From assembly GCA_903856085.1 (NCBI GenBank), contig CAIOAT010000038.1, positions 26,777-90,776 of the forward strand: a DNA stretch of 64,000 nucleotides, read 5' to 3'. The position numbers were made by a program, and so were the translations under genes. Below the pieces are notes generated by a model. It was given only the letters and a program-made list of their open reading frames with translations. It did no database searches and was not told the origin of the DNA. Position 1 is the first letter of the stretch, and each line of letters starts with the position of its first letter. Origin of the DNA: Candidatus Omnitrophota bacterium (GTDB lineage: Bacteria; Omnitrophota; Omnitrophia; Omnitrophales; Aquincolibacteriaceae). Positions 61,850-62,701 of the stretch are shown in pieces.

Positions 61850-61923
61850 TGGAGCGAGTGGAGGGAATCGAACCCTCGTAGCTGCCTTGGCAAGGCAGAG
61901 CATTACCACTATGCTACACTCGC
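61850..61923 (-). tRNA. tRNA-Gly (anticodon GCC), CCA encoded
   Basis: Reverse complement of the plus strand: GCGAGTG TA GCAT AGTGGTA ATGC T CTGCC TTGCCAA GGCAG CTAC GAGGG TTCGATT CCCTC CACTCGC T CCA. All stems are Watson-Crick. Confidence 0.85.
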
Positions 61924-61933
61924 TTGTTAGATG

Positions 61934-62004
61934 AAACACTGCGGTCATCGTAGACGGCTGTCATTGAGCCGTCATGACGCCACATTTGTTCACTGAGAAC
62001 AAAG
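61934..62004 (-). ncRNA. Twin-hairpin conserved element, copy A. It lies between the predicted promoters and tRNA-Gly.
   Basis: Hairpins GACGGCT-n7-AGCCGTC (61953-61973) and TTTGTTC-n5-GAACAAA (61985-62003). It is about 75% identical to copy B, with compensatory substitutions in both stems. Confidence 0.45.
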
Positions 62005-62023
62005 CGACTTCCGGGGAGGCCGT

Positions 62024-62136
62024 ATTCTAGTCCCAATACTTATCAATTTCAACAAAGTTGAAATTGGGGCAATCCTTGTCAACCATTCGAAAGACAAACA
62101 ATGGACAAGGATAGAAGCGCGTCTTAACTTTGTCAA
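62024..62136 (-). promoter_or_regulatory. Two tandem sigma70-like promoters directed toward tRNA-Gly/tig
   Basis: Minus strand P1: TTGACA (62136-62131), 17 nt, TATCCT (62113-62108). P2: TTGAAA (62052-62047), 17 nt, TAGAAT (62029-62024). Confidence 0.35.
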
Positions 62137-62161
62137 ATAAACCGCTGTCATTCATTTAAAG

Positions 62162-62243
62162 TGCGGCCGGAGGGACTTGAACCCCCACACCTTACGGTAC
62201 AGGATCCTAAGTCCTGCGCGTCTGCCAGTTCCGCCACGACCGC
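62162..62243 (-). tRNA. tRNA-Leu (anticodon TAG), type II with a long variable arm, CCA not encoded
   Basis: GCGGTCG TG GCG GAACTGGCAGA CGC G CAGGA CTTAGGA TCCTG TACCGTAAGGTGT GGGGG TTCAAGT CCCTC CGGCCGC A. Confidence 0.85.
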
Positions 62244-62256
62244 AAACCTAGTCACA

Positions 62257-62282
62257 AGAAAAAGTGCGCCCTGAAGGAGTCG
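62257..62282 (-). repeat. 26-nt direct repeat of the tRNA-Lys 3' end plus 8 nt of trailer. The original is at 62433-62458.
   Basis: agaaaaagtgcgccctgaaggagtcg occurs at both sites on the same strand. Confidence 0.6.
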
Positions 62283-62370
62283 GCGCCTCCGCTTCGCTAC
62301 GGTCGGCCACCCGCGCTACAACCATGACTTTTGTCTGGTTGTAAGCAGCGCTCCCTTCGATTCCTGCAGC

Positions 62371-62440
62371 ACACAGTGCGGTTGTCGTAGAGGGCTTTCT
62401 TTGAGCCCTCACGGCACCGTACTTTTTCATTGAGAAAAAG
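62371..62440 (-). ncRNA. Twin-hairpin conserved element, copy B, immediately 3' of tRNA-Lys
   Basis: Hairpins GAGGGCT-n7-AGCCCTC and CTTTTTC-n5-GAAAAAG. Compensatory changes relative to copy A keep both stems paired. Confidence 0.45.
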
Positions 62441-62513
62441 TGCGCCCTGAAGGAGTCGAACCTTCGACCCAGTGATTAAGAGTCACTTGCTCTACCAACT
62501 GAGCTAAGGGCGC
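62441..62513 (-). tRNA. tRNA-Lys (anticodon CTT), CCA not encoded
   Basis: GCGCCCT TA GCTC AGTTGGTA GAGC A AGTGA CTCTTAA TCACT GGGTC GAAGG TTCGACT CCTTC AGGGCGC A. Confidence 0.85.
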
Positions 62514-62701
62514 AAAAACTCACAGCTTAAACCATCGATAAAGGGTATTGGCATCCTCTAAAAAGCCACCAAAGAGCGGGTATTCTACTCAAGAAAGTCT
62601 TTTTTTACAAGAAAGGGATTATCGATTTTTTTGAAAACCAGGGGACGATTCGAAGGTTGCTTTTTCGAATCGAAACCTCATAATACGCTCGAGGATATCT
62701 A

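Follow-up and report, generated by a model that had tools for sequence, protein, structure and literature searches.

A twin hairpin beside tRNA genes is the 5' module of a tRNA-trailing repeat family in Omnitrophota

A pair of twin hairpins of ~70 nucleotides (nt) was studied in a 64,000-nt stretch of a Candidatus Omnitrophota contig (CAIOAT010000038.1, positions 26,777 to 90,776; hereafter the window), where both lie on the minus strand among tRNA genes. The twin hairpin behind tRNA-Lys, called copy B, was found to be the 5' module, made of hairpins H1 and H2, of a 176-nt unit which starts at the tRNA-Lys 3' end and finishes in a copy of that end. The unit is a folded, non-coding element in the sense of the tRNA, with strand-specific covariation in every helix. 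We lean towards the view that it belongs to a modular repeat family in Omnitrophota tRNA trailers whose members are trailer RNAs, transcribed together with the tRNA that they follow.

Three minus-strand tRNA genes (Lys, Leu and Gly) precede tig and clpP at the end of the window, and the full unit (62440..62257, minus strand) lies between the first two. Full units are about 176-200 nt long and run in the order discriminator base, H1, H2, short linker, guide of 10-12 nt, three-way junction with helices P2 and P3, and tail. H1 is an A+T-rich hairpin of 8 bp and H2 a long hairpin with one bulged U; in the window unit a 9-nt linker follows. The guide CTGCAGGAATCG is complementary to the tail, with which it forms helix P1, and to nt 56-67 of tRNA-Lys, with two mismatches in the window copy. 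The three strands of the junction read GAAGGGAG, GCGGGTGGCCGACC and GGAGGCGCC, and over 42 members the junction nucleotides (GAAGgGAG, GCGGGTGGCCgACC and AGGcGCC) are conserved while the helices covary. The tail adjoins P3 without a linker and is a direct repeat of 62433-62458 at 100% identity, with a repeat period of 176 nt. R1, a covariance model of the 3' domain, finds exactly one such domain in the window (62265-62371, 107.5 bits). Deleting 176 nt from the window gives back the 20-nt Lys-Leu spacer of three related loci, L002, L010 and L014, and the right flank of the unit, CTTTTTCTTGTGACTAGGTTT, is the empty Lys-Leu spacer of the same three. The coordinates of the features are given in Table 1.

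Table 1. The tRNA cluster, the trailer unit and the second twin hairpin, in window coordinates.
Feature	Position	Strand	Description	Basis
tRNA-Lys(CTT)	62441..62513	-	host gene of the full unit; no encoded CCA	ARAGORN; Rfam tRNA model, 73.6 bits
Copy B H1	62421..62441	-	ACTTTTTC-tcaat-GAAAAAGT; uses the tRNA discriminator A in its first pair	
Copy B H2	62379..62419	-	outer stem, one bulged U, inner stem GAGGGCT/AGCCCTC, 7-nt loop caaagaa	
Guide CTGCAGGAATCG	62358..62369	-	5' strand of P1; 12 nt	
Three-way-junction core	62283..62357	-		RNAalifold, pair counts, covariance model R1
J1/2	62352-62357	-	AAGGGA; part of the core	
P2	62313-62351	-	long hairpin with ATGAC-n4-GTCAT tip; part of the core	
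J2/3	62308-62312	-	GGGTG; part of the core	
P3	62283-62307	-	bulged helix capped by a GC-GAA-GC mini-hairpin; part of the core	
Tail	62257..62282	-	exact 26-nt copy of tRNA-Lys C56 to A73 plus 8 trailer nt	
tRNA-Leu(TAG)	62161..62243	-	starts 13 nt past the tail	ARAGORN
Putative decayed H1-H2 remnant	62137..62160	-	directly behind tRNA-Leu; AATGACAGCGGTTTA against AATGACAGCCGTCTA in copy A	87% of 15 nt, a weak match
Copy A, solo H1-H2	61937..62005	-	no 3' domain	covariance model R2, 61.6 bits
tRNA-Gly(GCC)	61850..61923	-	CCA encoded; no unit behind it here	ARAGORN
Promoter-like site TTGTAA-17-TAGAAT	62582..62610	-	upstream of tRNA-Lys	consensus match only
Promoter-like site TTGAAA-17-TAGAAT	62024..62052	-		consensus match only

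The original prediction for this DNA had described two ~70-nt copies of one element beside tRNA genes at about 75% identity, each with an AT-rich and a GC hairpin on the minus strand and with paired substitutions between the copies. Both copies are real. Their identity is 76% over 67 nt, or 70% in an ungapped comparison of 90 nt; a degenerate pattern of the core, 26 nt long, has two matches in the window and none in 100 shuffles; and the folds are more stable than those of their own shuffles (z of -3.4 and -4.2). On the minus strand, copy A has the H1 TTTGTTC-tcagt-GAACAAA (61985-62003) and the H2 inner stem GACGGCT-caatgac-AGCCGTC (within 61943-61981). It differs from copy B by three double substitutions that keep the pairing: T:A against C:G and G:C against T:A in H1, and C:G against G:C in H2. 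R2, a covariance model of the module built from 41 homologues, was run over the 64 kb with filters off. It matched the minus strand at 62374-62443 (90.8 bits) and 61937-62005 (61.6 bits) and gave only 15.4 and 9.2 bits on the plus strand of the same two sites; no third copy of the module was found in the 64 kb on either strand, the next match having E = 1.5. The sequences after H2 in the two copies are CACTGTG and CAGTGTT. What did not survive is the picture of a self-contained 70-nt element, the twin hairpin being a 5' accessory module of the ~176-200-nt unit. The position of copy B just 3' of tRNA-Lys stands, but its H1 itself pairs the tRNA discriminator base and trailer.

The tail and the guide follow the host tRNA. 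Thirty-five units share a contig with a tRNA, and in 30 of them the tail is identical at 17-18 of 18 positions to the upstream same-strand tRNA, counted from C56 (18/18 for the window tail and tRNA-Lys). Matching tails were seen for Lys, Leu, Gly, Asp, Trp, Ala, Ser and Met. The core always passes into the tail between ...GGAGGCGC and C56, the tail carries CCA only if the gene encodes it, and in L007 the tail follows an acceptor-stem change of its tRNA-Leu. Reverse-complementing the first 9-13 bases of the tail yields the guide, for example CTGAAGGACTTG for Lys, GAGGGAATCG for Gly, GGGGCTCG for Asp and GGCAGGAGTCG for Trp, and the guide is therefore also complementary to the T-loop and the 3' strand of the T-stem of the real tRNA. 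The 42 members of the 3' domain stand behind tRNA-Lys, Leu, Gly, Phe, Asp, Ser, Met, Trp and Ala, at least nine species. P1 covaries with the tRNA type and P2 goes with it; a long P3 variant is shared by one Lys, one Leu and one Gly unit, from different genomes.

The window Tig was used as a query to collect 22 syntenic loci from metagenome-assembled genomes of Candidatus Omnitrophota, at 53-92% identity, among which the Lys-Leu spacer ranges from 19 to 386 nt. With nhmmer, 23 full units were found in 17 loci plus the window. They are always on the tRNA strand, 0-3 nt behind the tRNA or behind another unit, inverted pairs included. Nine related loci have full units behind tRNA-Gly (L002, L003, L005, L007, L009, L013, L018, L019 and L047). 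The Lys-Leu tRNA pair, together with its trailing units, is inverted relative to tRNA-Gly and tig in L003, L004, L005, L011 and L021.

A loose core pattern returned another 120 metagenome stretches, mostly by chance, from which nhmmer and R1 left about 15 real members. Wherever the contig of such a member has a tRNA, the 3' domain lies just downstream of it on the same strand, and the hosts are Asp, Ser(GCT), Ser(TGA), Met, Trp (twice), Ala, Gly(CCC), Leu(TAA) and Phe. Tandem arrays of units occur in L066, L118, L029 and L002. Some distant members do not have H1-H2, such as the 153-nt unit of L066, which consists of a 15-nt linker and the 3' domain; the 3' domain is therefore taken as the conserved heart of the unit and the twin hairpin as an accessory module. 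Further copies in related genomes, for which a covariance-model search had been proposed together with the original prediction, do exist: R2 was built from 41 homologous modules of related Omnitrophota genomes. Spread of the GC-rich metagenome members across phyla was considered and set aside on the relatives of two proteins, L066 NusG and L072 MnmA: both of the two tested have their named relatives in Candidatus Omnitrophica/Omnitrophota. The family is accordingly claimed for Omnitrophota only.

Covariation carries the claim that this is a structured element. RNAalifold on the 23 units predicted H2, P1 (guide:tail), P2 and P3, with compensatory changes in 29 of 44 pairs. In the 3' domain of 22 sequences, 92.1% of the cells were paired, against 36-42% when the partners were slid, and 21 of 35 pairs were compensatory. 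The 42-member alignment, which was fitted to R1 and so leans toward the structure, gave 92.3% against 37-42%, with compensatory changes in 28 of 35 pairs. The 41 H1-H2 modules gave 93.4% against 34-51%, with 21 of 24 pairs compensatory. None of 500 shuffles reached the observed pairing in any of these three sets. H1 alone has compensatory changes in seven of its eight pairs (41 modules), and its variants keep the hairpin despite wholesale change: ACTTTTTC/GAAAAAGT, ACTTGTTC/GAACAAGT, ACCAAACC/GGTTTGGT, ACTGAATT/AATTCAGT and ATCGAACC/GGTTCGAT. The excess of G.U over A.C (16:2 in P2 and P3 together, 29:13 in H2) assigns the fold to the tRNA-sense strand. The original prediction had spoken of a structured RNA under selection and not a drifting duplicate; its covariation is real, but insertion polymorphisms show that the modules also relocate at the DNA level.

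Other identities for the unit were tried. A coding role was rejected: a 60-amino-acid open reading frame (ORF) starting in the H1 loop (62430..62248) stops after 6-11 codons in most other copies, and paired indels in P2 break its frame. The start of the unit had seemed to resemble the 5' end of tRNA-Gly beyond the hairpins, and the family alignment gives this no support. As had been predicted, the element is not a tRNA: no cloverleaf with an anticodon arm was found in the unit, and ARAGORN and the Rfam tRNA model give only Lys, Leu and Gly.

The arrangement of the locus suggests how the unit may be expressed. The TTGTAA-17-TAGAAT site upstream of tRNA-Lys would have copy B and the rest of the unit co-transcribed with the tRNA, and the TTGAAA-17-TAGAAT site upstream of copy A places that copy in the predicted transcribed leader of tRNA-Gly and tig. 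A conserved TAGAATACGG block lies at the tRNA-Gly/tig promoter-like site in 20 loci. Because there are promoter-like sites upstream and no terminators in between, and by comparison with E. coli, we infer that the unit is co-transcribed with its tRNA. The tRNA-processing enzymes would then cut it off as a trailer RNA of ~180 nt ending in a tRNA 3' end, as in the annotation of E. coli rtT. The duplicated tRNA end provides homology for unequal recombination between the tRNA 3' end and its copy, through which arrays would grow, shrink and vanish. Units are amplified in tandem, lost precisely and exchanged between copies.

Stable hairpins in predicted transcribed spacers might also be terminators, attenuators or stabilisers of the tRNA and tig transcripts, with no link to the tRNA sequence. 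This is scarcely credible here, since such hairpins would leave the tail and the guide that match each tRNA unexplained and only 13 nt separate the unit from tRNA-Leu. Neither copy is followed by a T-run, and a terminator scan was negative at both, in line with the original statement that the element is not an intrinsic terminator.

If the unit is a trailer RNA, its guide could do more than hold its own tail. In a hypothetical strand swap, the guide would bind the 3' third of the tRNA itself, leaving the tail to complete the tRNA body. A conserved GAA follows the guide; it pairs with the universal U54-U55-C56 in the real tRNA and not with the GC before the tail, and the guide pairing amounts to 14 bp with the real tRNA versus 12 bp with the tail. 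Three transcripts of tRNA plus unit were folded, and for all three the predicted minimum free energy structure was the swapped one (z of -5.2, -3.4 and -7.4). In this predicted fold, nt 54-67 of the tRNA pair with the guide and enclose H1-H2, and the tail pairs with the 5' strands of the acceptor and the T-stem. A swap would explain why the eight tail bases outside P1 remain the same as in the tRNA and track its acceptor-stem changes, and through it the unit would modulate, or compete with, the maturation of its host tRNA in cis.

A number of points weigh against the trailer-RNA reading. Nearest-neighbour folding takes no account of tRNA tertiary structure, of modifications or of co-transcriptional order, and the swapped fold may never form. 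The eight tail bases outside P1 are unpaired within the unit yet identical to the tRNA, an identity that needs either gene conversion or the unproven strand swap. Transcription and processing of the units are argued from their position and from E. coli. The patchy presence, truncated copies and copy-number variation look like those of a selfish repeat and not of an RNA that the host needs, and the function of the E. coli analogue rtT is itself called unknown (PMC7542023; bioRxiv 10.1101/2024.07.17.603846).

The remaining points are relocations of DNA that go beyond an RNA function. Copy A does lie 5' of tRNA-Gly as predicted, but it is an atypical solo insertion in the leader, following ...GGAAGTCGC downstream of TTGAAA-17-TAGAAT, and it is confined to this genome: all 22 related loci lack an insertion at the site, where L008 reads GGAAGTCG joined directly to TAAAGTCTCATCTAACAA. 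Its closest relative is a solo module behind a Leu-type unit in L009 (89% over 45 nt). A module subtype with H1 = ATTGATTT/AAATCAAT likewise stands at different sites in different genomes. In L002 (887-953) it lies behind the antisense of a tRNA-Arg 5' end (...TATGGGCGCA), and in L003 (2444-2513) and L005 (2089-2158) behind a GGGCGCA-ending mini-hairpin, GCGCCAACACC-TGTG-GTGTGGGCGCA, which looks like a collapsed acceptor stem; in each of the three genomes the alternative site is empty. Copy A and this subtype are DNA-level relocations to sites that resemble acceptor 3' ends. If the units are trailer RNAs, copy A would be a solo module copied into the tRNA-Gly leader, and RNase P would discard it.

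Solo H1-H2 modules are common in the family, in which 60 H1-H2 modules were aligned. Of the 56 tabulated modules, nearly all begin at the 3' end of a tRNA or at a copy of such an end, either a tail or the CCGCAC in which modules end and which mimics the tRNA end. The original suggestion that the element travels with tRNA genes is borne out by these positions. The remnant behind tRNA-Leu weakly suggests that this gene, too, once had its own trailer module in the window.

The relocations bring up another explanation, that the family is a non-autonomous mobile DNA element, similar to a miniature inverted-repeat transposable element and maybe folded as single-stranded DNA, moved by an enzyme encoded elsewhere. 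Its target would be acceptor 3' ends (...GCGCA, ...CCGCA), the hairpins and the guide:tail inverted repeat would be DNA recognition sites, and the RNA would be a by-product. We hold this to be a serious possibility, though not a probable one. An insertion confined to this genome (copy A) is what it would expect, as is one module subtype at different GGGCGCA-ending sites in L002 versus L003 and L005, and at the L002 site, antisense to a tRNA-Arg 5' end, no tRNA 3' end is transcribed. The CCGCAC module end mimics the element's own target, so that modules chain, and solo modules, truncated units, tandem arrays and filled and empty sites are scattered over close relatives. P3 variants shared by units of different tRNAs, with P2 kept by tRNA type, point to exchange among copies. 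Tails hold trailer bases and are without CCA if the gene is without it, and so were copied from DNA or a primary transcript and not from mature tRNA.

Against mobile DNA, no transposase, integrase or reverse transcriptase was found beside members, and ten distant members lie among housekeeping operons, whose products were identified by eye from sequence conservation and the order of the genes. A tblastn search with an approximate IS200 TnpA query, a weak test, gave no match in the window or in 160 loci. Terminal inverted repeats and a regular target duplication are absent. Units of different tRNAs in one genome are only ~75% alike, which gives no sign of recent jumps of full units. The G.U bias and the strand difference in model score fit an RNA, although same-sense single-stranded DNA is also compatible with them. 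Finally, no copies turned up on plasmids, phages or viral contigs: BLAST gave no phage or plasmid matches, and the 16 pattern matches on viral contigs were all chance.

The conserved junction raises the question of catalysis. The strand made of the 3' side of P3 and the tail is held by two helices round a purine-conserved junction, which is the topology of the hammerhead, and the junction could be a small ribozyme or intron-like device that cuts or joins between ...GGAGGCGC and C56. The unit would then be a self-processing RNA, like a retrozyme or a T-loop intron, whose guide picks its tRNA. Junction nucleotides conserved in 42 members with covarying helices, a core/tail boundary always just before C56 and units in tandem arrays would all suit such a device, and the predicted swapped fold puts the whole unit as a T-loop insertion into an otherwise complete tRNA. 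We nevertheless think it unlikely. The three-helix topology is the same but the core sequence differs: the junction strands read GAAGGGA and GGGUG, with no sequence match to the hammerhead core (CUGANGA/GAAA), in which cleavage falls after H17, and no Rfam 15 ribozyme family matched the unit at E = 10. The upstream tRNA is intact already, which makes splicing unneeded, and conservation alone cannot imply catalysis.

Partial tRNA 3' ends also call to mind integrated elements. In tRNA-borne attachment sites (attL and attR) a direct repeat runs from the T-loop to or past the tRNA 3' end, much as it does here, and the units could be scars of integrase-mediated integration in the T-loop region, with the tail as the displaced attR copy and the remainder as leftovers of the attP arms after an interior deletion. 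Two loci lend themselves to this idea. At L066 the copy on the tRNA has CCA and element sequence and the last tail is followed by an apparently native flank, and at L057 a P3 and tail stand directly behind an ORF, which is the one lead towards a full-length island bounded by a tRNA and a core with tail. The idea is very unlikely all the same. Only 150 nt lie between the repeats, no integrase or cargo is found near members, and units sit inside housekeeping operons and persist over genomes whose Tig identity is 53-92%. The same folded core, with covarying helices, is found behind at least nine different tRNA species. The guide, as the core's inverted partner, stands ~90 nt away and not adjacent as in the sites of core-type recombinases.

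The two loci merit a description of their own. L066 (2181-2557) has two identical 153-nt tandem units, which follow tRNA-Trp and lie between tuf and secE/nusG. On the tRNA, the copy has CCA followed by unit sequence, the last tail is followed by a different flank, TATAACTT, and the present 3' end of the tRNA-Trp may have come in with the unit. L057 (540-611) has only P3 and tail (..GGGTGGCCGACC..GAAGGCGCCAACTCCCCCCTCCGCA), directly after the stop of a 142-amino-acid ORF on a 1.9-kb contig with no tRNA; this may be the far end of a larger tRNA-bounded element, or a truncated unit.

The family is absent from Rfam 15 and from the literature searched, and its design is otherwise known only from the E. 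coli tyrT locus. The Rfam comparison that the original prediction called for gave no match to the unit in the window region at E <= 10, only tRNAs and chance matches. Seven other members gave only tRNAs, chance matches and sub-threshold hits to RtT and sX4 at E <= 1.

RtT RNA (RF00391), or rttR, corresponds to the 178-bp distal repeats of the E. coli tyrT-tyrV operon; passages in PMC3318445 and PMC7542023 credit the description of rtT to Bosl and Kersten in 1991. In E. coli K-12 one unit was found between the tRNA-Tyr genes and three 178-nt units after tyrV, all four of which pass the RtT gathering score (133-137 bits). In these units GGGGAAGGAU pairs with the tail AUCCUUCCCC, then comes CACCACCA, the 3' end of tRNA-Tyr, and the annotated 171-nt rttR ends exactly at the CCA of the tail. 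Both families stand directly behind a tRNA gene on its strand (the window unit starts at the tRNA-Lys discriminator base), both have tandem repeats of ~178-nt units (a 176-nt period in the window), and both are non-coding, with at best an unconserved small ORF. Both units end in a copy of the tRNA 3' end, of 19 nt in E. coli and 18-26 nt here. In both, an upstream segment pairs with the copied 3' strand of the T-stem and closes a multi-helix domain (P1 here, the Rfam consensus there), a GAA after the antisense segment can pair with the UUC of the tRNA, and copy number varies between strains (PMC7542023). In E. coli K-12 (1287066-1287622) the sequence after the antisense segment is GAGAA, which can pair with the T-loop UUC of tRNA-Tyr across tandem G.A, so that in rtT, too, complementarity extends further with the real tRNA than with the unit's own tail.

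Homology with RtT was not found. The RtT model has no match in the window at E <= 10 and its best score on a member is 18.9 bits (L118) against a gathering score of 45, and R1 finds nothing on the E. coli tyrT locus at E <= 1. RtT has a long inner helix with two hairpins where P2 and P3 here sit directly on the junction, its copy begins at A58 where the copy here begins at C56, and it is without the H1-H2 module. RtT was looked at only at E. coli tRNA-Tyr, whereas the Omnitrophota family serves at least nine tRNA species. The Omnitrophota family is thus a variant of the RtT kind by architecture and not a member of RF00391.

The small RNA sX4 of Xanthomonas (RF02223), detected by Northern blot (PMC3300014), is a looser parallel. 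Its consensus is a tRNA-Ser with a trailer of ~70 nt, and a GGGGGG end pairs back onto the 3' strand of the tRNA T-stem and acceptor in the Rfam consensus. It differs in having no conserved junction core and no visible tail copy; one distant member with its tRNA-Ser reached 30.9 bits, mostly from the tRNA part, against a gathering score of 70.

The modules also share traits with REP, BIME and REPIN sequences and with hairpin repeats derived from IS200/IS605, all of them short, structured, multi-copy intergenic sequences with covarying palindromes and insertion polymorphism. Repeats of the REP type have a conserved flanking tetranucleotide, and here an invariant CTAC, or GTAG on the opposite strand, comes after H2. 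Unlike such repeats, which are dispersed in many copies through genomes with a Y1 (HUH) transposase gene, the modules here appear to be tied to tRNA 3' ends, with two copies in the 64 kb, both in the tRNA cluster, and are strongly strand-specific, and the full unit has a tRNA-matched guide and tail that REPs do not have. No RAYT or TnpA match was found in the window and the 160 loci in the weak tblastn test described above.

Plant mitochondrial t-elements and mascRNA are partial tRNA mimics in longer transcripts which borrow the enzymes of tRNA end processing. The units would resemble them in being a partial tRNA mimic within a longer transcript. Here, in contrast, only the 3' 18-21 nt are tRNA sequence, and they are paired with a dedicated antisense segment and not with a 5' acceptor strand.

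The E. coli rtT repeats have been an unexplained oddity since 1991, and a phylum that is both distant and uncultivated now shows the same design. Here the family is large, its core is different and well conserved, and it is adapted to at least nine tRNA species, which turns a curiosity of one locus into a comparative problem, in which each tRNA type is a new guide/tail pair and so one of many independent 'experiments'. The alignments of 42 3' domains and 60 H1-H2 modules make it a new motif for Rfam-type annotation. The family also means that partial tRNA 3' ends beside tRNA genes are not always integration scars. A bolder and speculative idea, for which we would claim little probability, is that Omnitrophota carry phylum-wide 'programmable' tRNA-trailer RNAs with a guide retargeted to the T-loop and T-stem of each host, to which E. 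coli rtT would be a distant analogue. They might act as a strand-exchange switch on the yield of mature tRNA, or as a ribozyme-like or single-stranded-DNA self-copying device; if true, a structured non-coding element would be tied to tRNA identity by a mechanism that is new.

Two smaller observations were made along the way. The tip of P3 (62289-62295 in the window) reads GCGAAGC in most units and covaries, being AC-GAA-GT in L005 and GT-GTA-AC in L010. As DNA, d(GCGAAGC) is an unusually stable mini-hairpin, and the tip could hint at folding as single-stranded DNA.

The other concerns the promoter region of tRNA-Gly and tig. At 62030-62111 (minus strand) the window has an 82-nt insertion made of two hairpins, TCCTTGTC..TGACAAGGA and CCCCAATTTCAAC..GTTGAAATTG..ATTGGG. 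It splits an ancestral TTGACA-17-TAGAAT promoter of tRNA-Gly/tig and provides a new TTGAAA -35 element. The insertion is absent from L009, L010 and L015-L017, where GCGCTTCTAGAAT is unbroken, and is found in the window and in L002, L006, L008, L012, L013 and L014. It looks like a second small insertion element, unrelated to the trailer units.

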